Made by a program: the position numbers and the translations under genes
Shown here: positions 4,919-61,700 of the stretch, one piece after another
Position numbering within the stretch: position 1 is the first letter of the stretch
Layout: each line of letters opens with the position of its first letter
Notes under the pieces: model-generated
Database searches by the model: none
Told to the model about the DNA's origin: nothing
The model's input: only the letters and a program-made list of their open reading frames with translations
IMG/VR virus record: IMGVR_UViG_3300020048_000136
DNA: 64,000 nucleotides
Source of the DNA: a virus
Strand: one strand, 5' to 3'

Positions 4919-7336
4919 TTATGTTTCTGAGGTTATTGAATCTGTATCATGCCTTGTACGAATCTTCATCCACCTTCCTGACATATCTCTACCATCCTCA
5001 GGCATAACACCCTCTTTGAACATAGCATATGAGATAAGCCATTTGTAGAATCGTGTACGGGATATGGTCATCTTTGACCGTGAACCATAGTCGGGGTATT
5101 CGTTTATAAAGTCGTTGAATAGTTCTTGCTTATAAAGTTTAACACCTGCTTCTAACAATCTGTTAGGCTCAGTACCTTCAATAATTCCGCACCATTCAAT
5201 GAATTCATGTGATGACTCTGCTGATAGTTGGCGAATCTTAAGGTTTACAAACTTAGCTTTAACCAAGCCTGTATTAAGGTATCCCTGTAAGCAGCTAATC
5301 ATGTAGTTGTCGAATTCGCACCAATCGTCATCATTCCAATCCCCGAACATCAGTTTCCCGAACTCATCAAGAGGAGTGAACTCCTTTGTGTAATACTGAT
5401 GAAGTTCAAGTTCCCACTTCCTACGTGCAAATGAATTACCTGCACCCTTAATAGCATAGTTGGTTGTGATGGCAATTTTCGGTGATTTGCTGAATGGAAT
5501 CTTGATGGCATCTTTGTTCTTCTTCTCCAATGTCAGCCCCTCGGTGACAACGCTGAACAGACGTTCAAAATCGAAGTGCTTCTTAACGTCATCGAATACA
5601 AGAATCTGAGTGTCTGCCGATACTAACTGATAAGCGAATGACCGCTCAAAAGTAAATGACTTTCCGTCAATAGTTACAACCTTCTTCATGTGACTCAATG
5701 CATTCATAAAGATTCCCTTTCCTGTGCCACCCTCAGGGTTATCACTTATAACCTCATCGTTAAGAATTATAGCAGGGCAGAATGAAAGATTCTTATGTGC
5801 ATGAAGCATAAACCCAATTGTACTATGCATTGAATCTACTCGGCTCTTATCGCCACCACAGATGTTTGATATAAACCTCTTGTAGTCGCAGGACTTTGTA
5901 ACCTTACAGATGTTGAACACCCTGTCAATTACGTGGTCTTTCCAAACATAACCGCCAAGGTCAAGATAGTCTATCGGTATAATCTCATCCTTTGAAACCA
6001 TAACAGCGCAGTTCTTGTAGTAGATGTAAGCCTCGGTAGCCGTATCAGCAATAAAGTAAATGTCGATTGTGGAAAGAAGAGTCAAGAACTCATCCTTAAA
6101 GAACCGTGTTTGGTCAGCGAAGTAGTTGTAAATCCCGACATCGTCTAACTCAATAACGTATGACAGTATGAAGTCTTTAATTTCCTTCTCTGATGTGTGG
6201 TCAATCAAGTTGTTGGTAACCTTTACAAACACATAGTTCTTGCTACCTTCGGGACAGTACTTGTAAAATCCATTGTCCTCAAGGAAGTGCTTGAAAAGTA
6301 TGTGGATTATCTGAATCCTACCCTTATCATTCTTAGACCAAAATATTTGCTTTGAGTTCTCCTCTTCAACTTTTGACAACACGGAATCAATAATATCGCT
6401 ATCCAAATTTGACTCCTGTAATTGGTAGCGAATCTCTTTTTTTGATACACCCCTCCTCAATTTAGTTTTTATAGCGTTAATCCTTTCTTCATCCTCATAG
6501 TACTTAGTTCCAAAGTTGGCTGTATTAAGATATGCTGAGTCAATTGTTCGCTGTATCTCCCGTGACGTGAAGTCTTCAGAAACATACTGCGTTAACACAA
6601 ATGATGCAAGGCTCTTGGCTACTCCAAAATCATTCATTGCCATTGCCAATACATATGTATTCTGATTGCGCTGCCCCGAAACCATTGGATACTTATGTAG
6701 CCACCATTTTGTTAGGATTTCAACAATCTTGTTCTCGTCTGTAATTGGGATTGTAGGAGAATCTCTGTTCTTGCTAACCTCATTATACGATGTTTCTTCT
6801 ATCGTATCCCAAATCGAACTGTTGATATTGACGTGAGTCCTTGGGTCATATGATTCGTAGCATACTCGGCTGATATTCTTGCTCGTCTTATCGAAGTATG
6901 GAGAGTTAAAATAATTCTCCAACGAATTGAAGTAGTTGAGATGATTTTCTACATCGGGTGGAATCTTAACAAGTATCTTTAGTCCATTGCCCGATGGTGA
7001 AATAAAAATTGCAAATACGTATTTGTTTTTTGAAAGAGTCTCCTTGTCTTGAAGAAGTTCCTTCTGAGTTTGATACCCGTCAAAGTCTAAGCAGATAAGC
7101 CCGCTATGGTCAATTATTGAGTTATCATTCCTCTTGGTAAAAGTTCCGCTAAAGCATATGGCAGGTAACTTCTTTTTCAATTCGTTACGCTCAGATTTAT
7201 TCTTCTCTAATCGTATCTTCTTTACAAGGTCTTTAGATGCTCCCTCCTTTATCCTCTCAAGGATTGTCATGACATCCCTATGGAACGGAGTGGCTGTTTC
7301 TTTTATAGTTTGGAATATTGTAACATTTGCTCCCAT
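4919..7336 (-). CDS. primase-helicase (N-terminal AEP/VirE-BT4734-like primase plus D5-like SF3 P-loop helicase)
   Basis: Acidic primase motif LICLDFDGY near the N-terminus. Walker A NPEGGTGKGIF and Walker B-like ILVFDDV in the C-terminal half. 805 aa. Confidence 0.8.
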   Translation of the reverse strand: MGANVTIFQTIKETATPFHRDVMTILERIKEGASKDLVKKIRLEKNKSERNELKKKLPAICFSGTFTKRNDNSIIDHSGLICLDFDGYQTQKELLQDKETLSKNKYVFAIFISPSGNGLKILVKIPPDVENHLNYFNSLENYFNSPYFDKTSKNISRVCYESYDPRTHVNINSSIWDTIEETSYNEVSKNRDSPTIPITDENKIVEILTKWWLHKYPMVSGQRNQNTYVLAMAMNDFGVAKSLASFVLTQYVSEDFTSREIQRTIDSAYLNTANFGTKYYEDEERINAIKTKLRRGVSKKEIRYQLQESNLDSDIIDSVLSKVEEENSKQIFWSKNDKGRIQIIHILFKHFLEDNGFYKYCPEGSKNYVFVKVTNNLIDHTSEKEIKDFILSYVIELDDVGIYNYFADQTRFFKDEFLTLLSTIDIYFIADTATEAYIYYKNCAVMVSKDEIIPIDYLDLGGYVWKDHVIDRVFNICKVTKSCDYKRFISNICGGDKSRVDSMHSTIGFMLHAHKNLSFCPAIILNDEVISDNPEGGTGKGIFMNALSHMKKVVTIDGKSFTFERSFAYQLVSADTQILVFDDVKKHFDFERLFSVVTEGLTLEKKNKDAIKIPFSKSPKIAITTNYAIKGAGNSFARRKWELELHQYYTKEFTPLDEFGKLMFGDWNDDDWCEFDNYMISCLQGYLNTGLVKAKFVNLKIRQLSAESSHEFIEWCGIIEGTEPNRLLEAGVKLYKQELFNDFINEYPDYGSRSKMTISRTRFYKWLISYAMFKEGVMPEDGRDMSGRWMKIRTRHDTDSITSET

Positions 7337-7874: not shown

Positions 7875-7977
7875 AATTGAAAGTTGTTTTTGTTTTTGTG
7901 TCCCAAATATTTATAATATAGTGCCGAAGATTGGAACGTACTTCGTCATTATATGGAGTGTCGTCAAAGACAAATCG

Positions 7978-8067
7978 TGGTTGGAATGGGAATCGAACCC
8001 ATACTCCGCAGAAGATACCCCACTTTCGTGGCTCGACTACATAGTGCTGCCATTACACTATCCAACC
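7978..8067 (-). tRNA. tRNA-like gene with a non-canonical, expanded anticodon arm (no assignable anticodon)
   Basis: Minus-strand RNA has acceptor stem GGUUGGA/UCCAACC and a D-arm GUG(U)-AAUGGCA-(G)CAC. The T-arm is AUGGG-UUCGAUU-CCCAU, the discriminator is A, and no CCA is encoded. The anticodon position holds stem UGUAG/CUGCG enclosing 25 nt, which include a CCAC-GAAA-GUGG hairpin. Confidence 0.55.
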
Positions 8068-12242: not shown

Positions 12243-12583
12243 AACAGATTCAGTTTTAATTGTGTATAATTAGGTAAGTTAATTGGCTGCTCCTTAAATA
12301 CGGATAGCTTGCTCTCGGCTTTCTTCAGCCCCACGTATGGAGGTGAGTGACTGCCTGATGTAGCTACAGAATAGAACTTGAGAACTAAATCATCAGTCCA
12401 TCTGAACCCATCTCCATAGCCCTCAAGATGCAGGGATTTAAAGATTCGAATCTTGTCGGCTACCTTCCTCGCTCCGCAGTACGGAGGTTCATCGGCACAT
12501 CCCGAATGATAGACTCGGATAAATTGCCTCAACAGGTCTTCAGTCCATTGAAACCCATCCGATTCAATTTTTGTTTTTGTCAT
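12239..12583 (-). CDS. hypothetical protein made of two tandem ~45-aa repeats
   Basis: DGFQWTEDLLRQFIRVYHSG...PPYCGARKVADKIRIFKS is followed by DGFRWTDDLVLKFYSVATSG...PPYVGLKKAESKLSVFKE. The start is moved to the ATG at 12583 because 12584-12613 belongs to the conserved hammerhead tail. Confidence 0.55.
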   Translation of the reverse strand: MTKTKIESDGFQWTEDLLRQFIRVYHSGCADEPPYCGARKVADKIRIFKSLHLEGYGDGFRWTDDLVLKFYSVATSGSHSPPYVGLKKAESKLSVFKEQPINLPNYTQLKLNLL

Positions 12584-12603
12584 AGGTTTATTTATTAAGG
12601 GTT

Positions 12604-12654
12604 TCCGTTTCATCGTTTACGAATCATCGGTCAGGATACACATCCCAAGACAGA
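12604..12654 (-). ncRNA. hammerhead ribozyme-like element HHR-3 (type III topology, U4C core variant)
   Basis: Minus RNA reads UCUGU-C | UUGGGAU-GUGU-AUCCUGA | CCGAUGA | UUCG-UAAA-CGAU | GAA-ACGGA. Same architecture as HHR-1 and HHR-2, with compensatory changes in stem I and a G.U pair in stem III. Confidence 0.5.
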
Positions 12655-12683
12655 AGGAGTGTCTTCGACGACACCCCAACCCT

Positions 12684-13844
12684 TTATTCTCTAAATTTAA
12701 CTACCTCCTCTTCTCTGAACCATATCCCGCAAGACTTGCAGTAATAGTTCGCAAACCCATCAAACTCCAAATCAGAATAGCAATCAACGCACATAGCGTT
12801 CTCCTCGGTGATATTGAAATCAGTAGGAGTAGTTCCCGTTATGAAATCCTGCTCGGATAATCCCGACATAAAATCAAGTTCGTACCTTACATCAGCATCT
12901 TGGAATCGGGATGGCTTATAAGTAATTTCGGGACGAGTCTGAGGTGTAGGAGTATATTTCGGAGCATAACCCATAATCCTTTCAGTATATGTGCGAAAAT
13001 CCTGCTTGTATGCTTTGTGGAATGTAGCATTGGCGCTTATCATCTTCGGATTGAAGTATAACCAACATACAAGGACATTCCCGTTAGCCATCTTGATAGG
13101 AATCTGCTGCCTCTGATACCAATTGGGATGACCTTCCAACCTATCCAAATCAGTTAGCTTATCATCGCTGACCTTGAAAACATCAACAGCAACATTATGC
13201 CCGATACCTTTGCGATTCACTACATAAGGTAGCCCCTCTATTATTAACGGATACTTATCCTTGGTGACTCCATTGCCGACATAAGTACTCTTGGTAAGAT
13301 ACGACTGATAGTTATTGTATCCCTTCTTCAGAGTCCCGTATACGGCAACCAAATGCTCTTGGAGGACATTGCCCTTTGAGTACCAAATATCGCCTCTCAT
13401 TGACCATAGCTGTTGATTGTAAATCTCGTATGTTTTAGTCTTTACGTTGACCGTGACAAACCTGCATGGGTATTTTGCAAGTTCTTCTTCCCAACCGCTC
13501 CTCGGAATCAATCCTAACTTTTCAGCCAACACTTTGCTGTCAGTCTTTTTGTGAGTCCCGATACCCTGTATTGTACCGTTCATCATGAGCCATTCATCCG
13601 AATTTGCACCGCATTGGAATGGATGAGTATTGTCTTTCCCAATCTTGCCAACCGTAGCATAGCGGAAGTGCGCTATAAATGGTCGGGCTGTATCAAGAAC
13701 CTTAAATTCTGATGACTTGTGATAACTGATACTGTAGTCATCAAGCCATACAACACCCAACCCGTCAGGATTGATTAAGGATGATGTCTTGGCTATCTCT
13801 GTGGACAGCCTCTCATTCGACTTCTTAATGATTATTACACACAT
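12684..13844 (-). CDS. fusion protein: class II (Ntn) glutamine amidotransferase, gamma-glutamylcyclotransferase (AIG2/GGACT-like) domain, and C-terminal zinc ribbon
   Basis: N-terminus MC(2)VIII with HFRYATVG...NTHPF...MMNGTI (GATase-II pattern). Central AVYGTLKKGYNNY...LDRLEGHPNWYQR (GGCT/AIG2 pattern). C-terminus CVDC...CKSC. Confidence 0.7.
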   Translation of the reverse strand: MCVIIIKKSNERLSTEIAKTSSLINPDGLGVVWLDDYSISYHKSSEFKVLDTARPFIAHFRYATVGKIGKDNTHPFQCGANSDEWLMMNGTIQGIGTHKKTDSKVLAEKLGLIPRSGWEEELAKYPCRFVTVNVKTKTYEIYNQQLWSMRGDIWYSKGNVLQEHLVAVYGTLKKGYNNYQSYLTKSTYVGNGVTKDKYPLIIEGLPYVVNRKGIGHNVAVDVFKVSDDKLTDLDRLEGHPNWYQRQQIPIKMANGNVLVCWLYFNPKMISANATFHKAYKQDFRTYTERIMGYAPKYTPTPQTRPEITYKPSRFQDADVRYELDFMSGLSEQDFITGTTPTDFNITEENAMCVDCYSDLEFDGFANYYCKSCGIWFREEEVVKFRE

Positions 13845-14943: not shown

Positions 14944-14991
14944 GATTCTATAAATTAGATTAAATTAAACTGTACGGATTATCCGCACATT

Positions 14992-15026
14992 GCAGCTAAG
15001 AGGGGAATCGAACCCCTCACAAGCAG
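14992..15026 (-). ncRNA. isolated tRNA T-arm/acceptor-like minihelix (or tRNA 3'-half relic)
   Basis: Minus RNA reads GUGAGGGG-UUCGAUU-CCCCUC-UUAGCUGCA, a canonical T-loop sequence on a 6-bp stem. No D or anticodon arm can be built upstream because that region is the 3' end of ORF 15030..15296. A 7-bp hairpin follows at 14969-14985. Confidence 0.4.
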
Positions 15027-15473: not shown

Positions 15474-15680
15474 TTACAGTTTAGTGATGAAGAAAAGAGT
15501 TGAGAACACCATATAGGTGAAGATGTGCCACTTCAGATTGCTCCATGATTTCGGCTCATCTGATAGGATTATTACAGCTATTGCCAATGCAGATAGCGTT
15601 ACGAATGTATATGTCCTCATCCCGTAGAAGAATGACGGGAGAATTAAGCAATAGCTTAATATTACGTGCTTGATGTTCAT
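15474..15680 (-). CDS. small membrane protein (68 aa)
   Basis: Track ORF, largely hydrophobic, with two or three TM-like segments. Confidence 0.5.
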   Translation of the reverse strand: MNIKHVILSYCLILPSFFYGMRTYTFVTLSALAIAVIILSDEPKSWSNLKWHIFTYMVFSTLFFITKL

Positions 15681-15682
15681 AT

Positions 15683-15973
15683 CTATTTGATATTATATTT
15701 GTCTAACAATACTTTGAATCCGTGGCGCACTGCCTTTACATAAGCATCAGAGAGATGCCCGAATGTAGCAGGATTGCTCATAAGGATAGAGGTGATAGAT
15801 ACGTAGCGCATCTCTATCTCATGGAGCAGAACCTCGTTAGTCTCACCCATTACGATAGCATTGATAATCTCGGGAGCAGTACTACACTTCCTGCAATTGA
15901 AGACTCCCGTCCTTTTGGATTCGATGTGCCGATTGGCAATCTCGCTCTGCAAAGCACTCAATCTGTTGCTCAT
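15683..15973 (-). CDS. hypothetical protein (96 aa)
   Basis: Track ORF. The start lies 21 nt downstream of HHR-1. Confidence 0.55.
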   Translation of the reverse strand: MSNRLSALQSEIANRHIESKRTGVFNCRKCSTAPEIINAIVMGETNEVLLHEIEMRYVSITSILMSNPATFGHLSDAYVKAVRHGFKVLLDKYNIK

Positions 15974-15994
15974 AGCTTTTTGGTTTTAAAGGTT

Positions 15995-16048
15995 TCCGTT
16001 TCGACTGTTTTCAGTCTTCATCAGCGAAGATACACATCTTCGGACGGA
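15995..16048 (-). ncRNA. hammerhead ribozyme HHR-1 (type III topology)
   Basis: Minus RNA reads UCCGU-C | CGAAGAU-GUGU-AUCUUCG | CUGAUGA | A | GACUG-AAAA-CAGUC | GAA-ACGGA. All core residues are present: C3-A9, G12A13A14, A15.1-U16.1 and the GUC cleavage triplet. One extra nt lies between A9 and G10.1. Confidence 0.75.
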
Positions 16049-16072
16049 GGGAATGTCTTTAAAGACAATCCC
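16049..16072 (-). terminator. 12-bp hairpin abutting the HHR-1 5' end (contains the TGTCTTTAAAGACA palindrome)
   Basis: GGGAATGTCTTT/AAAGACAATCCC with one mismatch. Lies 10 nt after the stop of 16083..16379. The T-run is on the plus strand only. Confidence 0.45.
16054..16067. repeat. palindrome TGTCTTTAAAGACA (hairpin upstream of HHR-1)
   Basis: Exact match. Confidence 0.95.
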
Positions 16073-16082
16073 TTTTTGCGTA

Positions 16083-16379
16083 TTATTTTACGTATACTTT
16101 ATACGTTTTGCCCGTTTTCTTCGAAGTGCGCAGGTAATAAACACCGCCCTTGCTCCCTGTATAAAAGGTTTCCCCTCCTATCACTTGATAAACTTTTGAT
16201 GTCTTTGCTGTTGCTTTGCCCGTATCAGCTATTGTGGTAACCTGACCGTTTACCATCTTGTAATGTGGCGGCTTTTGAGCCTTTACCATAACTCCACTAA
16301 GAACCAATACGATGATTCCGATTACTAATGCAACAGAGATGTACCTGTCGCTTGAATTCCTTCTGTCATAATTTGTCAT
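16083..16379 (-). CDS. membrane-anchored basic protein (98 aa)
   Basis: N-terminal TM helix VALVIGIIVLVLSGVMV. The basic C-terminus TGSKGGVYYLRTSKKTGKTYKVYVK resembles viral basic-adaptor-type repeats (low confidence). Confidence 0.55.
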   Translation of the reverse strand: MTNYDRRNSSDRYISVALVIGIIVLVLSGVMVKAQKPPHYKMVNGQVTTIADTGKATAKTSKVYQVIGGETFYTGSKGGVYYLRTSKKTGKTYKVYVK

Positions 16380-16401
16380 AAGACTTAGAATTTAAAAGAT
16401 T

Positions 16402-16455
16402 TCCGTTTCGACTCTTTAGAGTCATCATCAGCGAAAGCACTCACCTTCGGACGGA
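16402..16455 (-). ncRNA. hammerhead ribozyme HHR-2 (type III topology)
   Basis: Minus RNA reads UCCGU-C | CGAAGGU-GAGU-GCUUUCG | CUGAUGA | U | GACUC-UAAA-GAGUC | GAA-ACGGA. The core is identical to HHR-1, and stems I and II carry compensatory differences. Confidence 0.75.
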
Positions 16456-16475
16456 GGGAGAGATTGCGCTCTCCC
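16456..16475 (-). terminator. 7-bp hairpin abutting the HHR-2 5' end
   Basis: GGGAGAG-attgcg-CTCTCCC, 10 nt after the amidoligase stop. Confidence 0.45.
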
Positions 16476-16485
16476 GTGATTTAGT

Positions 16486-17487
16486 TTAGAAATTTATGTC
16501 AGCTAACTCATCGACAATACCTTCGATTGAATTTCGCCTTGCAGCATTGCTGACTCCTCGCTCGTAAAGACTCCTCATCTGCATACGTGGGTCAACAAAC
16601 TTTTGCACCTCTGTTCCGATTTTGCCCGTCTTAATCATCCTGTGGAATGCCTTGGACAATTCCATGATTTTCTCGGCTTTGTCAACATTGCCATTATACA
16701 TGGAGATAATGATAGGCTTTATGACCTTCAAAAATGATGCATAGGATGTCCGTGGTTTATTGACGGATATATTTACAATCTCGTACATCAATTCGTATCT
16801 GCGCATCATCTGCTTTACAGACTCGAATCGGGAGATGACTCTAAATTCAACTCCGCTTGTCCCGTCAGGGAATCTGACGTACTTTGCGAGATTGTATTTG
16901 GTATGGTATCCGTTGAACCATTGCGCCCTGTCAGATATTGGCAGCATAGTAAGGTTATGGCTGCAATAGCTGTTTGTCAGACGATTGCGAAACAATGCGA
17001 GGAGAATAGCTGAGTTTAAGCGAATCTTGCTGAGTAACTCTTCCCCGTCCATACCTACGCAAGTAATTGTGGCATGACCTCCGCAGTTATTACTGCTTGG
17101 GCTGAATCTGTCATCAATAATACGCTCTGCTTTGTGCATCATGTCGTAAACTTTATTCCTCCATAAACCCGACGGGAGCAAAGGTAAAACGTGAGTTACT
17201 GCCTCGTATCCGCAGCTATTATCTTGCTCAAATCCGCAAAATAATTCATATTCACGAATCGCATCCCTATGAAGTTGATTCTTTTCAACTTCGAATCCGA
17301 TTGTAAATTTGGATGTCACTTCGTCACCCAAAACAGTCACAGCATTTGCTTGTATTACAGGTTTTAGGCTTTCGACATCAGCCCTATAGGCTTTATTCAA
17401 TTTGAACGGTGACGGTTTCGCGTGATAGGAACACACTCTTCCTCGTGCTCTCTCGCCTGAGGTGAGATAAACCACTTCTTTTTTCAT
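16486..17487 (-). CDS. putative amidoligase (glutamine synthetase-like COOH-NH2 ligase family)
   Basis: Motifs IGFEVEKN, GYEAVTHVLP, CGGHATI and GVEFRVISRF match, as recalled, the GxExE / E..T / H.H / EFR pattern of the phage and plasmid amidoligase family. Confidence 0.6.
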   Translation of the reverse strand: MKKEVVYLTSGERARGRVCSYHAKPSPFKLNKAYRADVESLKPVIQANAVTVLGDEVTSKFTIGFEVEKNQLHRDAIREYELFCGFEQDNSCGYEAVTHVLPLLPSGLWRNKVYDMMHKAERIIDDRFSPSSNNCGGHATITCVGMDGEELLSKIRLNSAILLALFRNRLTNSYCSHNLTMLPISDRAQWFNGYHTKYNLAKYVRFPDGTSGVEFRVISRFESVKQMMRRYELMYEIVNISVNKPRTSYASFLKVIKPIIISMYNGNVDKAEKIMELSKAFHRMIKTGKIGTEVQKFVDPRMQMRSLYERGVSNAARRNSIEGIVDELADINF

Positions 17488-17491
17488 AGTG

Positions 17492-17515
17492 TTAAAGGTT
17501 AAAGGTTAAAGGTTA
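17492..17515 (-). repeat. three tandem copies of the AACCTTTAA leader motif
   Basis: Minus strand reads TAACCTTTAACCTTTAACCTTTAA, ending 4 nt before the amidoligase ATG. Confidence 0.7.
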
Positions 17516-17523
17516 GTAAATTG

Positions 17524-17566
17524 TGGGAGTGAGATGAATCGAACATCTCACTTGCACCTTGCTCCC
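17524..17566 (-). ncRNA. tRNA acceptor/T-arm-like minihelix
   Basis: Minus RNA reads GGGAG-CAAGGUGCAA-GUGAGAUG-UUCGAUU-CAUCUCAC-UCCCA. It has a T-loop sequence, a 3' part resembling an acceptor strand plus discriminator A, and GGGA/UCCC closure. It has no D or anticodon arms. Confidence 0.4.
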
Positions 17567-17572
17567 TGATTT

Positions 17573-17586
17573 TGTCTTCAAAGACA
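17573..17586. repeat. palindrome TGTCTTCAAAGACA (3 nt after the stop of 17589..18224)
   Basis: Exact match. Confidence 0.95.
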
Positions 17587-17588
17587 TT

Positions 17589-18224
17589 TTACAAAAATCC
17601 TTGTAGGAATTCAATCGCTGCCTGTATTTCGGATGCATTGTTTGTTGTTTTCAATTCCCCTGACTCTGTCACTCTTACAGCGACATTCTTAACATCATTT
17701 TTCCAAGTGAGGACAAATATCGCCTTCTCCCTCGTAACTGAGGGTGTTCCTTCTCCCTCTTCTCCCTCTTCTCCTTCTCCCTCCTCTGCCTGCGCTGCTT
17801 GCTGCTCCAAGGCTTTAGCGTATCTCAGCAGTCCTTCAATTGTGCGCTCTGCATCATCACCGTTATTCTCGGCAATAGTGCAGTCACGTTTAAATTTGGT
17901 GATAACCTCAGGTTTCACTTCCTGTAGCTTACCAACTTTCAGCATCTTATAGGCAAACGATTTCTGCCATCCGAATACCTTATTGAAGATGTCTTCCGAT
18001 GTCCAAGCTATTCCCTCAGTTGTCAATGTGTTAACTCCCTCCTCTGAGGTGAACCAAAGCATCGCTTTCAATACTAACTCGCTCAACTCAACCGATTTGT
18101 CGAATTTCTGCTTCTTGGCATTCTTTATGCCTGTGTTCAATATTTCAATTGCACTCAGGTTAATTGCCTGACGTACTGTTGCATTCTGTAGGAATGCTGA
18201 TTCAATTGCTAATAAATTGCTCAT
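17589..18224 (-). CDS. hypothetical protein with a Glu/Gly-rich linker (211 aa)
   Basis: Track ORF. Contains a possible HTH (FGWQKSFAYKMLKVGK) and the acidic low-complexity tract EEGEGEEGEEGEG. Confidence 0.55.
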   Translation of the reverse strand: MSNLLAIESAFLQNATVRQAINLSAIEILNTGIKNAKKQKFDKSVELSELVLKAMLWFTSEEGVNTLTTEGIAWTSEDIFNKVFGWQKSFAYKMLKVGKLQEVKPEVITKFKRDCTIAENNGDDAERTIEGLLRYAKALEQQAAQAEEGEGEEGEEGEGTPSVTREKAIFVLTWKNDVKNVAVRVTESGELKTTNNASEIQAAIEFLQGFL

Positions 18225-21614: not shown

Positions 21615-21953
21615 ATGAGACACGTAGAGATTGCGTTAGAGAAGTACATGAAGGAGAGCGATTCTCCTGCAAATGAATATGTTCAGTTGGTAAATACTGA
21701 GGATATCAAGGGAATTGCTCCTATTGTCAGCTTCATAGTTCAGAGTGACCCCATCGGAGAGGTAGGAATTAATGGATGCCAAGCATTAGATATGCTAAAG
21801 TATACCAAGTGCCTGTTCCAAAGTCTGAATGAAGTGTTCCCATGTCGTGAGAATGCTATCACAATAACAAAACTTGAAGAGGCTATCCATTGGCAGGATG
21901 CAAGGACAAAGGATAGGATGAGAAGGAATGTTGAAGGCGCTAATAAATCGTAA
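21615..21953 (+). CDS. hypothetical protein (112 aa)
   Basis: Track ORF. Confidence 0.55.
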   Translation: MRHVEIALEKYMKESDSPANEYVQLVNTEDIKGIAPIVSFIVQSDPIGEVGINGCQALDMLKYTKCLFQSLNEVFPCRENAITITKLEEAIHWQDARTKDRMRRNVEGANKS

Positions 21954-21955
21954 CC

Positions 21956-22285
21956 ATGACAGCCGAGGAACAAGAGAAACACTTAGCATCTTTTGTCAAT
22001 AAGATGGCTCACCTACTTATCCGAAAGGGTAACGACTACGCCAATGATGATAGGTTATCAAACTTTAAGAAGGTCGCAATAGTTTGTGGTCTATCTGAGG
22101 AGCAGGTAATACTTGTGATGTTAGCCACTAAGATTGTTAGGTTATCAAACTTAATCGGCAATGATGTAGTTGTTATGAATGAATCGATAAGTGATACCAC
22201 GGTAGACCTGTCTAACTATTCAGCACTACTTGATATGATGATTTCAGAGAACAATAACCTTAAAGTAAAAACAAGTCATGACTGA
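21956..22285 (+). CDS. hypothetical protein (109 aa)
   Basis: Track ORF. Confidence 0.55.
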   Translation: MTAEEQEKHLASFVNKMAHLLIRKGNDYANDDRLSNFKKVAIVCGLSEEQVILVMLATKIVRLSNLIGNDVVVMNESISDTTVDLSNYSALLDMMISENNNLKVKTSHD

Positions 22286-52705: not shown

Positions 52706-55700
52706 ATGAACGAGCAAGCAATCAAGGATTCCTACGAATTATTTGTTGCAAATGGGTATGGAAAATCTATTGATGACTACAAGACCCTCATTGCATCAAA
52801 TCCAAATGCTCTTAAGGATTCATACGACCTATTTGTTGAGAATGGGTACGGAAGAACTATTGATGATTACAAGACACTCATGGGGGTTGGTATTTCTGCT
52901 GAGCCTACTGTAAAAAAAAAAGAAGTTTCCTCTCAGCCTGTTACTACCGATTTGCGAATTTCTTCAAATCCTCAGGCAATGGAGGCTATCGGGAACAGGA
53001 TAGAGCAGATAGACCCACTATCTCAGCATAATCTAAATAAAGAACAGTCGATATCTAACGCATATAAGGCAGCTGAAAATCCTCCAAACGAGGAGAAGAA
53101 GGAAGGGAACTTCCTTACCAAGGCAGCCTCATTAATCTTCAAAGGTCTTCTGTTCCAAAAGGAAATTGAGAGCCAAGTTGAGTCGGGGACAACTAAGCTT
53201 GTCTCGGGCGCATTAGGTGTACCCGAGATTGCTTGGGATGTTGCAAGTTCAGCGCCAAGGGCATTAGGCATTCCCGTTCAACATTGGAGAGATACTCCTT
53301 GGGTACAATCTGCCGATGTTGCGGGTGTTGAGTTGAACCCTATTGCTCATATGGAGAACACCAAGAACTATTTGTTTGAGCGTGGTAAGGAGATAGACAA
53401 GTATGTCAGAACCATAAATCCCGAATTGGACAAGGGCGCTTTAACTGCATTTTCAGAAGGTGATGTTGGATTAGGTTTCAGAAATCTTATTAGCGGTACG
53501 GCTCAGTCTCTGCCAACTACCGTGGCTATTGCTGCCTCGGGAGGTACTGCTGCGCCTGCTATGGTAGGGTTTCAAGTAGGTACATTTGCCGAGCAGTCAT
53601 ATCAGCAGTCATTGGATGATAATGACTATGAGAAGATAGGTCAAGACAGACTTGCTCTTGTGAGCCTTTTGTCGGGGTCTATGGAGTACACATTTGAAAG
53701 CGTATTGGGAGCAGGAGCAACGGCAGCAGCAATAAGGAAACTAATTGAGCGGGAAGGTAAGGATGTTGCAGAGGGTGTTGTACGCAAAGGAATCAAGAAC
53801 GGGTTCGTTGATATGCTTATCACTAACCCTTGGCTTGCGCCTTTAGGTGATTCTTTCGAGGAGGGAGCGACTCAGCTTTCTCAGAACGTCATCAATAAAT
53901 ATTCGGGATACAAACCCGACATTAAGATAATGGATGGTGTCGGAGAGAGTATGCTCCAAGGCTCATTCATGGGTATCGCAATGGGAGGCACATTGAAGGC
54001 TGTAGCTATGTCTCAGAAAGAAAAGCTTCCATCGCAGAAAGAGGCTGATGAGAAGATAAGAGGTATCGCTGATAGGCTTATGAACCCCGAGAATCTCCCG
54101 CTTGTCAGCACATCTATGGAGCGGGTAGTTAAGTGGAGTGAGATGATGAATAGCTTGGGCAGGATTGATGAGCAGACTTACAATCGAATCCAAGAGAACG
54201 TATCGAACTATCGTGCTGCCACAGACCTATTAAGTGTCGGTAAAGGGGAAAAGACTACCCCGAAACCCGAGACTGTAACCCGTCTGATGGATTTATTGGC
54301 AGCAAAGAAAGACTTGACATCCACCAAGGATAGGGCAGAGTACTACTCTGATGAGATTAGGCGCATCAATGATGAGATTCTGAACGTAACTCAGAACAAA
54401 GAAGTTCCCGAGGGAAACAATCGTGAGTACATCAATCAGTTAGTCAACGATATCGTGGCTCATACCCGTGTTGGTGTTCCCTCATATACCATTGATGGTG
54501 TTGAGTATGCCAAGGATAAGTTCACCGAGATTATAAGTGGCATGACTGCCAATGATTTCAAGGCGCACAAGATTGGTGTGTCGAATGATAAAGAAACATC
54601 TAACCTTTTAATCGAAAGAAGCAATGCCATTCAAGAGCCAAGCACAGAGGAGAGCCTGCCACGCAGCGAACAACCCGAAGTGGGACTGCCAAAAGTGGGA
54701 GAAGGAGACACCCAAGAACAAACCGCTCCCGAAGTACTTCAAGCCAAACAAGAAGAAGTAACCGCTGAGGTAGCAACGGAGGCTTCTCCTGCTGCCGAAA
54801 CAGTTACCGCTGCCGAGACTGCCACCGAGCAAGAGCCTGCCGTAGAGGTCACCGCAGAGCCTGCTGTAACAGAAACTACTGAGGTGGTATCTGAGGCGGG
54901 TGAGACTGCCGTGAGGGAAGTGTCTTCAAAGACACTTGAAGGAACTAAGTATGACTTGTCGGATGTGGATAAGTCCACAAGCACAATCGCTACCTTGGCA
55001 AGCACAGCAAGGGAGGAGAAGAGAGCATTCTTGACTGAAAGGAAAGCTGAACTGTTAAATACAGTAGAGACAGCGCCTTCCGAGAACCCGTCAACCGCTC
55101 GGGCATTAGAAGAACTTCAGTCTGTAGAGAAGAGGATAGAGTCATTGGCTATAGCTGACAAGATTGACGAGGTGAAAGCTAAGCTTGCCGCTGCAACAAA
55201 CGCAAAGGACAAGGCTAAGTGGGACAAGGAGAATACTAACCTTCAGAACAGATTCCGTGAGTTGAATGGTAACTTCTCATACAGTGGATACGAACTGATA
55301 TCGCATACAAACCGTGATATTGTTAAGGCTAAGTCGTATAAAGACCTTGCTGAGAAGTACCATGCTGCCAAGCAGGACGGCACAAATCCTGCATTGGTGA
55401 AAGCTGTTGAGGAGTTGGCTTATAAAGGGGCGGGTATCCCTGCTCCCGAGGCTGTTGTTCAGACCGAAGCGCCTGCACAAGAGACAGCGCCCGTTCAAGC
55501 TGAGACCACACAAGTAGCGCCTGCACAAGAGACAGTCGTAGAGGCTGCTCCTGCCAAGCCTGCTAAAGCTGCCAAGCCTGCTGTTAAAAGCGAGGTAGAG
55601 GCTATTGAGGAGGATATACAGTTCTACGAGATGAAGGTAGAGGATTTCATTGAAGACAATAAGTCATCTCTCTCTGAGTTAAAGGAGGACATCGCCAATC

Positions 55701-58700
55701 TGAAGAAGAAGAAGGATGGAGTTCGCTCATCAAATATGACTCGGGCAGAAAAGGCTGAGGCGATAGAGGAGATTGACTCCGACATAGAAGAACTTAAGGA
55801 CAACTACGATGCTGTTGTTGAGTCTAATAACAATGACATCAGAGAGCATAAATCAGAATTAAATAAACTAAAAAAGAAATTAGCAAAGGCTCAGCTTAAA
55901 GCAAAAGCCTCCACCACATCACAAACAACCAAGGCAAATGGACAAGAAAACACAGAATCAGCAAGTGGCACTAACCAAGGAGCAGGAGAAGGAACTTCTA
56001 AGTTATCCCGACTATTGGAGACCATCACTCAGAGAAGCAGCGTTAAGAGGGGAATCAATAAAAAAGACGTACGAAGAGAACAAACAGTTAGAGGCTTTCA
56101 TGTAAACATCATAAGTGAGATAACCTTTGACAAATCACTATCGTCTAAACTCAAAAAAGCATTCTCGGGGTTCAAGGGAACTCAGAAGGTTTACGAGATA
56201 ACGAATGGTGATTCGTTCTTGGCATTGCAGAAGAAAGCTTTAGAGAACAACAAGTTCGGCACATCGGTCACATACAAATCCGCAGAGGATTACAATAGTA
56301 CACGAATGTTTATTACTGAGGACGGGTCAACGGGATTAGTCCTAACTAAGGACGGTGAACTCTCGGCAGGATTCTCAGATGGGACACGACCAAACAATAT
56401 CTCTCAGCTTCTTATCCTTGGTATCAAAGAAGGCGCTCAGCATATAGAGTGCTTCGATACCGTGCTTCCTCACTACTATTCTAAGTTCGGGTTCAAAATC
56501 AAATCAAGACTTGAGTTCAACGATGAGATGAAACCCGAGGGGTGGGACTATGAGACGTACAAGAACTTCAACAATGGCAAACCCGATGTCCTTTTTGGCA
56601 TATATGAGGGTGGTGATAGGAACACCATTGAGGATAGGATAGGCACATTAGGTGACTACAATAAGGACGAGGCAAAGAAATTTGATAAGGATAGTTATCA
56701 GCAGGCACACGATTTCAACCTTAACGAAGACGTAAAGGTTCGTAAGGCAGAGGGTGTATATGAAGAAACAGTTGCTGATGAGGCTTCTCGGTTAGAGTCA
56801 TTGCTTGACGATGGCGCTCAGTTCCAACTTGAGACCGAGCCGTCAGATGTGCAGGAGAGCATGATTGCTGAGGCTGAGAAGATGATGGCTGAAGCTGAGG
56901 CGCAAGGATTCTCTGAGAATGCTTTTGATGCCACTAATCCCGAGCCTGCCGTGGTTCAGATTCCTATAGTGATAAGGGAGAACTCAAAGCTTGCCGATAA
57001 GGTAAAGCGCATGGGGTTATCTGAACTTATAGGGAAGAAGGTAAACCTTGTCATGGCTGACCAACTAAAGGTTGGTAGTGTGATGGTTGGTAAGAAGAGG
57101 CTCAATAGAATGGGAGGTCACCTATTCCCTCTCATCGACAAGCTGTTCGGGAAGGTTGCTTGGGCATCAATAGATAGAGCTGCTGCTAAGAAAATTGTTA
57201 TCGGTGCTATAAAATCAGACTATACTGTGGTTTACAACATGGATACCAAAGCTATAGATTCTAATAAAGCAATGAGAGAGACGTTCTTGGGGATGATAGA
57301 GGCGCTTCCAAAGGAGCAGAGCGATGTTATTCTCAAGCAAATACTATCACACCTTGACGGGAAGAAGTTCGCAAAGGCAACTGCTGCTGTGCATAAGGCA
57401 CTTGATAATGTTAAAACATTCAAGGAGTTTGAAGATGCCCTCTCTACTTTAAATGTTGATGCTAAAGCAAAAATAGTAAACTTACTAATACCTTCTGATA
57501 AAGTAAAGGCTGCTTCTGATTTAGGGAAGACCTTACAGAGTTTAGACATCTCTGTTGAATCAATTCGCAGGCAGAACATAGAGCAGTTCGTATCTGAGCT
57601 GCCAATGGGTGCTATGACGATGGTTCTTGAAGTTCACGATAAGAATGGAAATCGTGTGACCGCAGAAACATTGGATGAGGCTATTATGACAAGGGAGCAG
57701 CAAGAAGCTGAGGGTCTGCCTACGCATGATAACTATCCGTTCTATGTTAGAGGTAAAGCAGTAGCTATCTTAAAAGAGACTGTCCCCTTTTGGCATATGC
57801 TAAAGCAAAGCTTGGATAAAATAAATAAAAAAACTGCCAAGATATTAAGGGATAAAAACGATAATATAATAACAGCTAATACTGCGTTACTGAATGAGAT
57901 GTATATGGCTCAAAGGTCTGCAACAAATGCAAAAGAACTTACAGACCCAAATACCACACACTATCAGAAGTTTGTTGCGTTATTGTCAAGGTCATTCCCT
58001 ACAGTAAAGGTTGCAACAGAAGCTGAGTTCAATAACTTGATAGATAACCTTGGCGCTCAGACTCTTTTAGTTAAGAAACAAAAGGTATATGGCGCAGTAT
58101 ACGGAGGTAAGGTCTATCTTAACCCTACTCTTGAGAACTACAACACACCTATCCATGAGTTTGGGCACATATGGACTAACGTTACAAAGGCATCCAATCC
58201 AAAGCTATACGAGAAGGGAATCTCTCTTGTAAAAGGCTCATCTTATGAGAGCAGAGTCCTTAACAGTCCCGACTACAAGAGGATTGTAAGGAAGATGCGT
58301 GAGAGTGGCTCTACTGTTCAGCAGATAAACGAGTATGTGGCTGAGGAGGCTCTCGCTATGGCTATCGGTGACAAGGGTGAGTCATTCATAATAGCCTCAC
58401 AGAGGGCATCGTTTAATGATTGGCTGAACAAGATGTACTCGGCATTCAAGAACATGATGGGTATCTCAAAGTATACCACCGAGCAGCTTGAGAATATAAC
58501 CCTTGATGAGTTCACTAAGGCTATCGCTGTTGACCTTCTGTCGGGAGGTCAGCTATTCTCCAATGAGGAGGTTGACAATGCTGCCAAGAAGCTACAGTTG
58601 GATACAGCAGGACGTAGTGCCGAGGCAATAGTTAAGAAGGCTCGGGAGAATGGATTCTCTGAGGAGTCAATCAGAGTGGTTCTCAACAAGAGAGGCTACT

Positions 58701-61700
58701 CTCCTGCCGAGATTACCGAGGCAATGTCCAATATTGCTCCAACCGCTACGCTGTCAGAAGATATTCTTGAGGGATACGATGCCCTTATGAAGAAGGTTGA
58801 TGACAAGATTCGCACACAAATCGCCAACAAGGTTGATGTGAAAGCCATCGCCAAGTACTTGGATAAGATGCTTGCCAAGAGTGAGGTGTACAATAATGCC
58901 ACCGATGCTCAGAAGAAACGGTTGGAACTTGAGGTTAAGAACAAGCTGAATGTAAGGGAGAATCGGACGGCTACCTTGGGTCGCTTCTTTGGTGCTATCA
59001 AGGATGTGACGGGAATGTCTAACTCCGACAAGAAGAAGATTGTTCGCAGTATCAGAGACTTGTCACAAGACTCGGCAAAGCACATCACTCAAGAACTGAG
59101 GATGTTGGCAGAGACGGGGAAGGTTACCTTAAACCAAGTAAATAATATCATATCGAAGTTCGGCAAGACGAATCTGAATAGCGAGACATCCGTGTCTCAC
59201 TTTGTTGACTACATGTCCAAGGTATTTAAGGATGCTGAGTACTCAGCTAAGCTTAGTGATGCCAACAAGATGATGAAGTCAATCAAGAAGCTGTCCAAGA
59301 ACAAGGACAAGGATGCCAATTTAAGGGCATTAGCGAGCGCCTTTATAAAAATCAACCCTGCTACCGTTGATGACATAGATATGTACAACAGCGTGGCTGC
59401 AAAGATAAACGAGGCTATAAAAGGGTCAACCATGCGTGGGCAGAATGTTACGTTTGCCGAGTCGGTAAACATAGCTGAGGCATCCGAGTACATACGGGAG
59501 ACCATTGATGCGCAGAACGATAAGATTCGCAAGGATAGGATAGCTGAGATTCAGCAGCTTATGGGTGTTGATGTCTCTGACTTGAGTGCTGAGGATATGT
59601 TGGAGTTCTTATCCAACGATGAGCCTATCACCAAGTACAACGAGGGGATAGTGAGAAGCACAATCAACAAGATGTTCAATATCTACTCTACGCTTATAAG
59701 CGAATCATTCTCTACGGGCAAGGATGTCTTTACTGATGAGGATGTCAGCTTTACGCAGGAGCAGATGGAACTTGTCAATAAGTTCATGTCTATGGACTTG
59801 AAGTTGCTCAGTCCCAAGAATGCTCTCAAGGCGGTGGATGCTCTATCAAACTTCCTACAGAACAAATCGACTGCCAAGATGCAGGCGGTGGTATCTGAGT
59901 ATGCAGGAGAGTATAACGCACAAGCATTGGTTCGCAAGGGTGTTAAGTCAAGGGTTCTTCGTAAGTATTACTTTAAGAACATTGGTCGATTCTTGACAGA
60001 GCAAACATATAATCTGAACATGGTATTTGAGCGCATGTTCGGTGGTGTAAACAGCGGAGCGTTGGTCAAAAGACTTTCGGGAATGGCTGATGTCATTAAC
60101 AATAAGGCTCTTGCTCAGAGGATGTCATCAGATATTACTAAGCGATATGTAGATAGGTTCTATCATAGGACTACAAATGGTCAACCTTTCAACTCAGAGT
60201 ACAATGAGGTTGAGCGTGGTGTGTATGCCTTTATGACGAGGAATGTCATAGGAACTGAGGCTGAGATGAAAGCTGAGTTCGGGCGCAGGAAGACGTTACT
60301 TGAGGAGACAATTGATGCATTATCCAAAGGAGACTCAAAGGAGCAGGCTATAGCTGCTCTATACCAAAGCGCATACATAGGCATAGTAGCTGAAGCTAAG
60401 ACCATAAAAGACATATATGACAATACGAGTTCAACAAATGTTGATGCTGTTGAGTTTTGGGTGTCGGAGTGGGCAGATAACTTTGAGCAGATGTCAGATG
60501 TTGCGTTAAATGTATACAACAAGGTGTTGGATAGAGACTTAAACTACACTCCCGATAGGTACTCAAGGCTTAGTGCTGACTCGGGAACGGTAGAACTTAG
60601 CAACGATGAGTCTGCATTCTTAAACAATACTGATGGTGTTATCTACAAGAAAGAAACGGGTGTGTTGATGACTGCAATAAAGCCTAAGACACTCCCAAAG
60701 AATCGGTATATCAATCTGTCATTCGATACCAACAACTCTAACTCAATGTACGATGCGCTTGTGGATATCAATACCGCATCAGCTATACGTCAAGTGGAGT
60801 CGTTCTTCAATTCAGATAGCTACAGTAAGATTGTCCAAAGCGGTGATGATGCTAAGCTTCTGAAGAATCGTGTAGCCTTATATGTTCAGAACATAAGGAG
60901 GAAGTCACCGTTCTCAAATGACGAGATGTCGGCAATGGTGCGAAACTTAAACAAGCTTGCCACAATCGGTGTCGGTCAAGCATTAGGTGGCGTAACTCAG
61001 CCACTAAAGCAGGTCATCTCCGTGGGAACAAATACCCTTGTAAATGCAGGGGGATTAGATGTATTATCTACATTTAATGCGGCTAAGAAATCATTTATTG
61101 ATAGATGCGGGTACGCTATTGCAAACCGTGGGATTGAGTCTCAGGCTCACGTTGAGTCTATAAATAAGTTGATTGAAGAAGCTTCAAAATCAACAGGAGA
61201 GAAAGCCCTGAAACTCATTGAGAAGGCTAACAAGAAATGGTTGGAAGTCTTCTTGGTAAATCCCGATGTATACATAGCAAGAATGTCTTGGATGACATAC
61301 TACGAGAAGGCATTGCGGGCAGACGGAATAGACCCAAGCAGGATAGACTACAACACGGCTGAGGTTAATACCAAGGCAGCTGACTACGCACAAGAGATGG
61401 TGGATAGGCAGCAGAACGTGTCAGATACTGACATGGCAGGCAAGGTATTCAGCAATAAAGAGCCGTCCAATCAGATTCTTGTTAAGACTTTGCTCCCGTT
61501 TGCAAGCTTTAGGATGAACCAATCCGCTCGTTTAGGTACGGACATATCTGTTCTGACATCTAAGACATCTACTGTTGAGGATAAGATAATAGCGGGTAGG
61601 TCTGTAGCAGGGTTCGGGGTCGAGATGGTTGTGTTCCATGCTTTAGGTGTGGGTATTGCACTCACGTTGGGAAGTATAGCTAAGGCGCTGTTGGGCAAAG

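Follow-up and report, generated by a model that had tools for sequence, protein, structure and literature searches.

The window analysed here is the whole 64,000-nucleotide (nt) stretch of the IMG/VR virus record IMGVR_UViG_3300020048_000136. On its minus strand, between an open reading frame (ORF) of 333 amino acids (aa) and one of 98 aa, lies a 54-nt hammerhead motif, HHR-2, which is accompanied in the same window by two related copies, HHR-1 and HHR-3 (Table 1). The stop codon TAA of the 333-aa ORF (16488..16486) is followed by 10 nt and by a hairpin that touches HHR-2, and 22 nt separate the motif from the ATG of the 98-aa ORF at 16379. A previous description made from the DNA letters alone (hereafter the sequence-only reading) had given the same context and the same spacing, and both agree with the sequence. 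Its 'amidoligase' label for the 333-aa ORF is unsupported: a Pfam search (E <= 10), Pfam searches with 14 homologues and a profile comparison with PDB all gave no match. The GFEVEK and CGGH motifs of this protein are invariant.

The window encodes terminase, portal, structural and replication proteins as well as GroEL, and its large terminase subunit (TerL) is nearest to those of Flavobacterium, Cellulophaga and Tenacibaculum phages. The terminase, portal and structural proteins together with the TerL relatives in Flavobacterium and Cellulophaga phages identify the DNA as that of a phage, and the HHR-2 locus belongs to the leftward (early, replication-side) operon of a ~60-kb tailed podophage of Flavobacteriia-type hosts.

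Read from the minus strand (16455..16402), the HHR-2 RNA is UCCGU-C-CGAAGGU-GAGU-GCUUUCG-CUGAUGA-U-GACUC-UAAA-GAGUC-GAA-ACGGA, which matches the sequence-only reading base for base. Loops close stems I and II while stem III is open to the flanks, and the topology is therefore that of a type III hammerhead. All conserved hammerhead core residues are there, and A15.1 (16406) is paired to U16.1 (16451). The pair G10.1-C11.1 corresponds to 16423/16410, but an extra U at 16424 sits between A9 and G10.1, so that the core is not free of insertions. When the 54-mer, an 81-mer and a 231-nt context were folded, the upstream hairpin and the three-way junction were obtained as the minimum free energy (MFE) structure.

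Table 1. Positions of HHR-2, its substructures and the associated features in the window; the last row refers to related loci
Feature	Position	Strand	Remarks
HHR-2, 54-nt type III hammerhead	16402..16455	minus	sequence, descriptor, MFE folds, Rfam, model R1, synteny, covariation
HHR-2 stem III (5 bp)	16455-16451 with 16406-16402	minus	open to flanks
HHR-2 C17	16450	minus	GUC triplet; predicted cut between 16450 and 16449
HHR-2 stem I (7 bp)	16449-16443 with 16438-16432	minus	loop I 16442-16439
HHR-2 core CUGAUGA	16431-16425	minus	extra U 16424
HHR-2 stem II (5 bp)	16423-16419 with 16414-16410	minus	loop II 16418-16415
HHR-2 GAA (G12-A13-A14)	16409-16407	minus	
7-bp GC-rich hairpin GGGAGAG-CGCAAU-CUCUCCC	16456..16475	minus	abuts stem III; no U tract
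22-nt A/U-rich leader	16380..16401	minus	HHR-2 to ATG 16379; no Shine-Dalgarno
333-aa ORF	16486..17487	minus	upstream of HHR-2 cassette; anchor for syntenic loci
98-aa ORF	16083..16379	minus	N-terminal hydrophobic segment; phrog_16207 (PHROG match 3.1e-9); bracketed by HHR-2 and HHR-1
HHR-1, paralogous type III hammerhead	15995..16048	minus	sequence, descriptor; model R1 53.7 bits
Hairpin GGGAUUGUCU-UUAA-AGACAUUCCC	16049..16072	minus	abuts HHR-1; includes genome-wide palindrome TGTCTTTAAAGACA
HHR-3, hammerhead-like	12603..12655	minus	model R1 47.6 bits (match 12653..12605); sequence
Hairpin preceding HHR-3	12677..12656	minus	followed by HHR-3, then ~19 nt to ATG at 12583
tRNA-like minihelix	17525..17566	minus	preceding intergenic region, just after palindrome at 17573
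Minihelices replacing the hammerhead in related loci	L128:4916-4955; L149:~4942-4984; L162:4895-4936; L164:4948-4987		

A type III descriptor with relaxed settings (minimum stem lengths 4, 3 and 3 bp, an optional 1-nt insert, G17 excluded) matched HHR-2 and HHR-1 only in the 64 kb, and the mean over 300 dinucleotide-preserving shuffles gives a chance expectation of 0.053 matches per window. In a 67-nt search, the Rfam family RF00008 (Hammerhead_3) aligned to HHR-2 over model positions 1-54 with 31.8 bits and E = 7.6e-6. Rfam reported no hammerhead in the whole window at gathering thresholds and none in 301 nt at E <= 10, because its speed filters dropped the match. The RF00008 threshold is stringent for this phage subfamily, since only one copy reached it in 8 related loci that hold many canonical hammerheads. 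A covariance model termed R1, built from 56 distinct descriptor-passing sequences of the family, gave HHR-2 54.3 bits (E = 1.7e-13) and with filters off detected exactly three copies in the window, namely HHR-2, HHR-1 and HHR-3, all on the minus strand and within 3.9 kb.

The decisive test was a retrieval of related loci that is independent of the ribozyme. By means of the 333-aa protein alone, 40 viral loci were collected, mostly on ~60-kb contigs, in which the protein is 46-60% identical in amino acid sequence. Right after the stop codon of the 333-aa homologue, 36 of the 40 carry a hammerhead (34 canonical, 2 with U.U at 10.1/11.1) and the remaining 4 a tRNA-like minihelix. Given the divergence of the anchor protein and the differing stems, the hammerhead loci are not assembly duplicates of one genome. 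Model R1 found 100 copies in the window and the 40 loci, every one of them in the sense of the genes and none antisense; the relatives have 1-4 hammerheads in ~8 kb, always on the sense strand. Two pattern scans of viral contigs yielded more than 120 loci with a uniform architecture that consists of a 7-bp stem I, a GUGU/GAGU-type loop I, a stem II of either 4 bp or an inserted U/A plus 5 bp, and an NAAA loop II.

Two cultured phages belong to this picture as well. Flavobacterium phage vB_FspP_elemoE_6-9C (elemoE, NC_055854.1) has a hammerhead at 18150..18100 on the minus strand (37.7 bits), ~20 nt before the gp59 ATG, and Cellulophaga phage phi18:3 (NC_021794.1) has a more distant one at 21984..21929, also on the minus strand (19.4 bits), between gp050 and gp049 and near ardA. 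RefSeq annotates no RNA feature at either position.

Among 82 distinct relatives, the CUGAUGA block is the same in 67, and the others differ at N7 only, apart from two with C4. The GAA, A15.1 and U16.1 columns are invariant in the family alignment. Nucleotide 17 is C in 52 and A in 30 of these sequences and never G, a base that R1 did not exclude. Of 164 distinct family members, 28 have the extra residue after A9, a U in 24 of them and an A in 4, and their stem II sequences are of 15 different kinds; a 5-bp stem II accompanies the insert in 23 of the 28, while a 4-bp stem II is seen in 127 of the 136 members that lack it. These patterns mark the insertion as a maintained variant and not as a sign of decay. 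De la Pena and Flores reportedly described in 2001 an active hammerhead, that of the (+) strand of CChMVd (chrysanthemum chlorotic mottle viroid), with an extra residue between A9 and G10.1. The inserted U of HHR-2 is a tolerated variation and does not disqualify the motif, whose activity is predicted.

The helices, on the other hand, covary. In the 56 distinct sequences 98.8% of the pair cells are standard, versus 36-43% when the partners are slid by 1-3 columns, a percentage that is somewhat favoured by the fact that these sequences had to pass a descriptor demanding partial pairing. Double-sided changes occur in 11 of the 15 pairs and amount to 213 double-change cells. In the alignment of the 82 distinct sequences, which was fitted to model R1, 98.4% of the cells are paired, and 302 double-change cells are again spread over 11/15 pairs. 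Slid controls over both alignments left 30-44% paired, and none of 500 shuffles reached the double-change counts. G.U pairs are frequent, with a U.G closing stem I in 68 of the 82 sequences; since such pairs work only in the minus-strand RNA, they fit an RNA read from one strand.

The idea that selection acts on the RNA structure had originally been derived from a comparison of HHR-2 with HHR-1, whose RNA (16048..15995) is UCCGU-C-CGAAGAU-GUGU-AUCUUCG-CUGAUGA-A-GACUG-AAAA-CAGUC-GAA-ACGGA. In HHR-1, C17 lies at 16043, an extra A follows A9, and 21 nt lead to the ATG at 15973. A direct comparison of the two sequences bears out every listed difference: compared with HHR-1, stem I of HHR-2 has G.U in place of G-C at pair 5, G-C in place of A-U at pair 6 and U.G in place of U-A at pair 7, stem II pair 5 is flipped from G-C to C-G, and the inserted A becomes U, while core and stem III are the same in both copies. 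With only four changed pairs this paralogue comparison is correct but thin. The orthologue alignment with its compensatory changes in 11 of 15 pairs now supports the claim, and non-compensatory substitutions that break the stems in relatives, named beforehand as evidence that would count against it, were not seen in the orthologue alignments.

HHR-3 deviates more strongly. Its core is CCGAUGA (U4 to C), and positions 10.1/11.1 are U.U. It lies 3' of a gene for a 386-aa protein (12684-13844, minus) that combines class II glutamine amidotransferase (GATase) and gamma-glutamyl cyclotransferase (GGACT) domains. A hammerhead is found at this site in at least 13 relatives (10 with the U.U variant, 3 canonical). 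The stems of the U.U variant covary in the 10 relatives, and one of the copies, L148:8492-8540, also has C4; the weakened core of the HHR-3 type is conserved.

HHR-2 is embedded in a cassette whose geometry was measured over 84 distinct family members. The 45 nt upstream of the hammerheads have a mean MFE of -15.5 kcal/mol, compared with -7.1 kcal/mol for a control segment lying another 300 nt upstream. Where the upstream fold is stable (78 members), the last pair of the hairpin directly adjoins stem III in 70. Counted from the hammerhead 3' end, the next ATG is most often 19-23 nt away; in a second class, at 42-51 nt, the interval accommodates one more small hairpin. The leaders of the family are A/U-rich and devoid of Shine-Dalgarno sequences, in keeping with a Bacteroidota host. 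Neither the hairpin of HHR-2 nor that of HHR-1 is followed by a U tract, and the two were not called terminator-like.

At the four syntenic sites that lack a hammerhead (loci L128, L149, L162 and L164), a minihelix stands behind the hairpin instead. It combines an acceptor-like stem (5-7 bp) and a T arm whose loop reads UUCGAnU with a linker of 10-11 nt in which GG is usual. The window has its own copy in the preceding intergenic region, composed of GGGAG, an 11-nt linker with GG, the T arm UGAGAUG-UUCGAUU-CAUCUCA and CUCCC-A. This minihelix family is ~42 nt long, intergenic and strongly sense-biased; it has members beyond the window copy and those of the four loci, and a further candidate lies at ~14990-15020 of the window. 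The best Rfam match of the L128 minihelix is mascRNA, below gathering at 20.7 bits and E = 0.019. Minimal substrates of RNase P have this shape, and mascRNA (RF01684) is a tRNA-like element processed by RNase P. The finding that hammerhead and minihelix replace each other at a syntenic site speaks for 'a cut' as what is selected.

We conclude that HHR-2 is probably a functional cis-acting type III hammerhead that splits a polycistronic early mRNA. All of its catalytic residues are intact. Natural hammerheads that are active at cellular Mg2+ have loops of the kind UNmYN (loop I) and RNnA (loop II), most commonly as UN3YN hexaloops and as GNRA or AAAA tetraloops (PMC2632901). Together with its closing U.G pair, loop I of HHR-2 is UGAGUG and fits UN3YN, and the 3' A of its loop II (UAAA) fits RNnA. 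The loops of HHR-1 (UGUGUA and AAAA) fit both motifs, and in the family loop II has the form NAAA, its last A being conserved to at least 90%.

From the motif, its fold, conservation, covariation and strand and the geometry of the cassette, all of which are observed, we infer a cut and its effect on the message as follows. During transcription of the operon, the RNA would fold into the hairpin and then into the three-way junction, and HHR-2 would cut itself after C17. The upstream RNA with the 333-aa gene would thereby obtain a 3' end made up of the hairpin and six nt with a 2',3'-cyclic phosphate, and this hairpin-protected end should be poorly open to 3' exonucleases. The downstream RNA would begin with a 5'-OH and the compact body of stems I and II, followed by the leader, A/U-rich and unstructured, and by the start codon of the 98-aa ORF. 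HHR-1, and perhaps HHR-3, would act in the same manner at the next junctions. The net result would be the conversion of one transcript into separately stable and separately translated messages, for which no host nuclease would be needed.

Several points weigh against this proposal. The cleavage of HHR-2 is itself a prediction. Its extra U between A9 and G10.1 is a deviation from the consensus core, the 5' residue of its loop II is U and not the purine of RNnA, and its RF00008 score stays below the gathering score of 48.5. The protective roles proposed for the hairpin and for the 5'-OH are drawn from bacterial RNA decay in general and not from Bacteroidota. As to the minihelices, ARAGORN calls none of the tRNA-like elements, neither those of the relatives nor the window copy, and Rfam gives no tRNA-like match for the latter. 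Finally, MW202828, the closest GenBank relative (TerL 76% identical), is without a hammerhead in the homologous 13 kb, which means that the hammerhead is dispensable in some lineages.

An alternative use of two neighbouring ribozymes would be the excision of the 407-nt segment between them (16449..16043, with the 98-aa ORF), whose ends could be rejoined by reversal of the ribozyme or by an RtcB-type ligase to give a stable circular mRNA, as in retrozymes and viroid-like RNAs. HHR-2 and HHR-1 are type III copies in the same orientation, 407 nt apart and with the same stem III (UCCGU/ACGGA), and hammerhead pairs at distances of 219-408 nt are present in many relatives. The ends of the segment re-form HHR-2 exactly by means of a 5-bp hybrid stem III, so that a circle is possible in principle. 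Circular or spliced products have also been named as a possibility for clustered phage hammerheads by Perreault et al., who sought both and found none (PMC3088659). The identity of stem III in the window is equally explained by a recent duplication, and in many relatives the site holds only one hammerhead. Over 37 loci, a hybrid stem III of at least 4 bp would form in 74% of same-locus neighbours (mean 4.0) and in 73% of random pairs drawn from different loci (3.9); because neighbours equal random pairs, selection for circle ends leaves no signal beyond the family-wide conservation of stem III. Circularisation was rejected as the leading explanation on account of this comparison, and we regard it as unlikely. 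We attach just as little weight to a hammerhead-like fold with no or negligible cleavage, in which the A9 insertion would be crippling and the structure would be kept for stabilising the 5' end, tuning translation or binding a protein. The insertion is indeed off consensus and the Rfam score below gathering, and HHR-3 is conserved in position despite C4 and U.U, so that some members may be kept with weakened cores. The catalytic residues of HHR-2 are intact, however, the insertion goes with a longer stem II in 23/28 variants, and over 82 relatives the core is kept (N7 and two C4 apart) while the helices vary freely, as expected for catalysis and not for a hairpin scaffold. A non-cleaving structural role is thus unlikely for HHR-2; HHR-3 may have such a role.

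Still less probable is that the hairpin terminates transcription and the hammerhead sits in the 5' untranslated region of a transcript with a start of its own, whose 5' end it would trim instead of splitting a polycistronic RNA. There are precedents for such a position, as the elemoE hammerhead precedes the first gene of a leftward operon and a hammerhead variant in the haloviruses HF1/HF2 lies 13 nt before the start codon, at a mapped transcript 5' end (PMC3088659). In the present family, the zero gap between hairpin and stem III in 70/78 members leaves no room for a promoter, the hairpins of HHR-2 and HHR-1 do not resemble terminators, and promoter-like matches in the region were not above chance in a scan that did not include Bacteroidota-type promoters. 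A chance resemblance or a palindrome at the DNA level with no RNA function, for which one could cite the shortness of the motif and the empty whole-window Rfam search at gathering thresholds, has next to no probability left: the shuffled match rate was obtained with a much looser descriptor, the ratio of sense to antisense copies is 100:0, and the G.U pairs need the minus-strand RNA. The comparative data, with synteny in 36/40, diverged anchors and differing stems, refute it. Cleavage of a polycistronic early mRNA by HHR-2 therefore continues to be the preferred explanation.

A broader and more tentative proposal, which we find plausible but to which we give slightly less than even credence, is that the early operons of Flavobacteriia-type podophages are punctuated by a modular cassette of protective hairpin, endonucleolytic signal and ~20-nt leader, in which the signal may be either a hammerhead or a minihelix, the latter presumably cut by host RNase P and/or RNase Z, and one takes the place of the other at a given syntenic site. 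If true, the cassette would be a phage counterpart of tRNA punctuation, and the exchange would provide the first comparative argument that phage hammerheads simply supply a cut.

As regards the neighbouring genes, the GATase/GGACT gene lies 2.6 kb downstream of the 333-aa gene, and in MW202828 both are adjacent; the 386-aa and 333-aa genes may form a small-molecule or nucleotide-modification module. No relative of the 98-aa protein turned up in the viral contigs searched, and the exact protein is present on a single ENA contig only. A blastn search with 15600-17600 against 50,697 phage records gave no match. A tRNA-Ser gene with the anticodon CGA (7977-8067, minus) belongs to the same leftward operon, and a single ORF of 3218 aa (52706-62362, plus) closes the structural region.

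The palindrome TGTCTTYRAAGACA occurs at 12 places in the window (14-nt sites, one mismatch allowed) compared with 0.21 expected, namely at 3395, 7959, 10460, 14680, 16054, 17573, 18902, 20636, 33475, 40570, 54921 and 62363. The hairpin that abuts HHR-1 is built around it, and a copy adjoins the tRNA-like element; one copy follows directly after the tRNA-Ser gene, and another (62363) is located directly 3' of the stop codon of the 3218-aa ORF. In many related phages a GTGTCTTCAAAGACAC hairpin precedes the hammerheads. Because several copies lie within long ORFs, the palindrome may have a DNA-level role as a protein-binding or modification site.

Elements of the HHR-2 kind are already known. Hammerheads in phage and prophage DNA have been known since 2010-2011, and clustered copies that flank small genes were described in 2011. 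In that study, multiple prophage hammerheads were reported to flank individual genes and to cleave in vitro and in vivo, and a processing of long phage transcripts was proposed (Perreault et al., 2011; PMC3088659). A later review still calls the biological role of phage hammerheads open (de la Pena et al., 2017; PMC6155905). The coupling to a hairpin at fixed spacing, the synteny in Flavobacteriia-type podophages and the exchange for a minihelix were not found described in the literature searched. For a specialist HHR-2 is an ordinary type of element, but the comparative access that it gives to function is unusually clean: a uniform subfamily with fixed sites, fixed geometry and minihelix exchange turns the vague idea of mRNA processing into a falsifiable model, and elemoE is a cultured relative with a hammerhead in which the model can be tested. 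Routine annotation mostly misses the subfamily, as illustrated by Rfam at gathering thresholds, which recovers 0/3 window copies.

Comparison with the clusters of Perreault et al. brings out a common pattern of consensus cores in intergenic positions, on the same strand as the genes, with copies that bracket small genes of non-conserved function; the window shows the same clustering, with three same-strand copies within 3.9 kb and the 98-aa ORF bracketed by HHR-2 and HHR-1. The hosts of the earlier clusters are different (Agrobacterium, Azorhizobium, Clostridium, haloviruses), and their hammerheads are often of type II or rely on pseudoknot contacts. In contrast, the window subfamily is uniform, with 7 bp in stem I, 4-5 bp in stem II and the loops UGWGUG and NAAA, and it has a fused upstream hairpin, ~20 nt to the ATG, fixed syntenic sites and, in some relatives, replacement by a minihelix. 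With the type III hammerheads found in viroids and in satellite RNAs of plants, such as those of the satellite RNA of tobacco ringspot virus (sTRSV) and of CChMVd, HHR-2 shares the open stem III, the GUC triplet, the core and, except for the 5' purine of loop II, loops of the UNmYN/RNnA kind (PMC2632901). Unlike them, it is DNA-encoded, in the genome of a double-stranded DNA phage, and forms part of an mRNA, without rolling-circle replication. Retrozymes and viroid-like circles likewise have two direct type III hammerheads with a few hundred nt between them (PMC4918200, PMC5680766), but the window segment has neither long terminal repeats nor a non-coding rod RNA and codes for a phage protein.

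Further parallels concern the proposed function. In the early mRNA of phage T7, intercistronic RNase III sites split the polycistronic transcript, and the leftover hairpin stabilises the upstream 3' end. These are structured cut sites between cistrons, as HHR-2 is proposed to be; they differ in that they are double-stranded RNA sites for a host nuclease, whereas HHR-2 would cut itself and leave 5'-OH and cyclic-phosphate ends. The t-elements of plant mitochondria, tRNA mimics at which RNase P and RNase Z are said to generate the ends of mRNAs, and mascRNA resemble the phage minihelices in mimicking acceptor stem and T arm between coding regions; the phage minihelices score no more than 20.7 bits and receive no ARAGORN calls, and their cutting is putative. 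The engineered RiboJ element combines the sTRSV hammerhead with a downstream hairpin, removes the upstream RNA and leaves a defined, structured 5'-OH end, by which expression is made independent of what lies upstream. In the HHR-2 cassette, too, a hammerhead is placed before the ribosome-binding region, but the cassette is natural and its hairpin lies upstream of the ribozyme, where it would serve the upstream product, unlike that of RiboJ. The compact cassette of hairpin and ribozyme is a natural analogue of synthetic ribozyme insulators.

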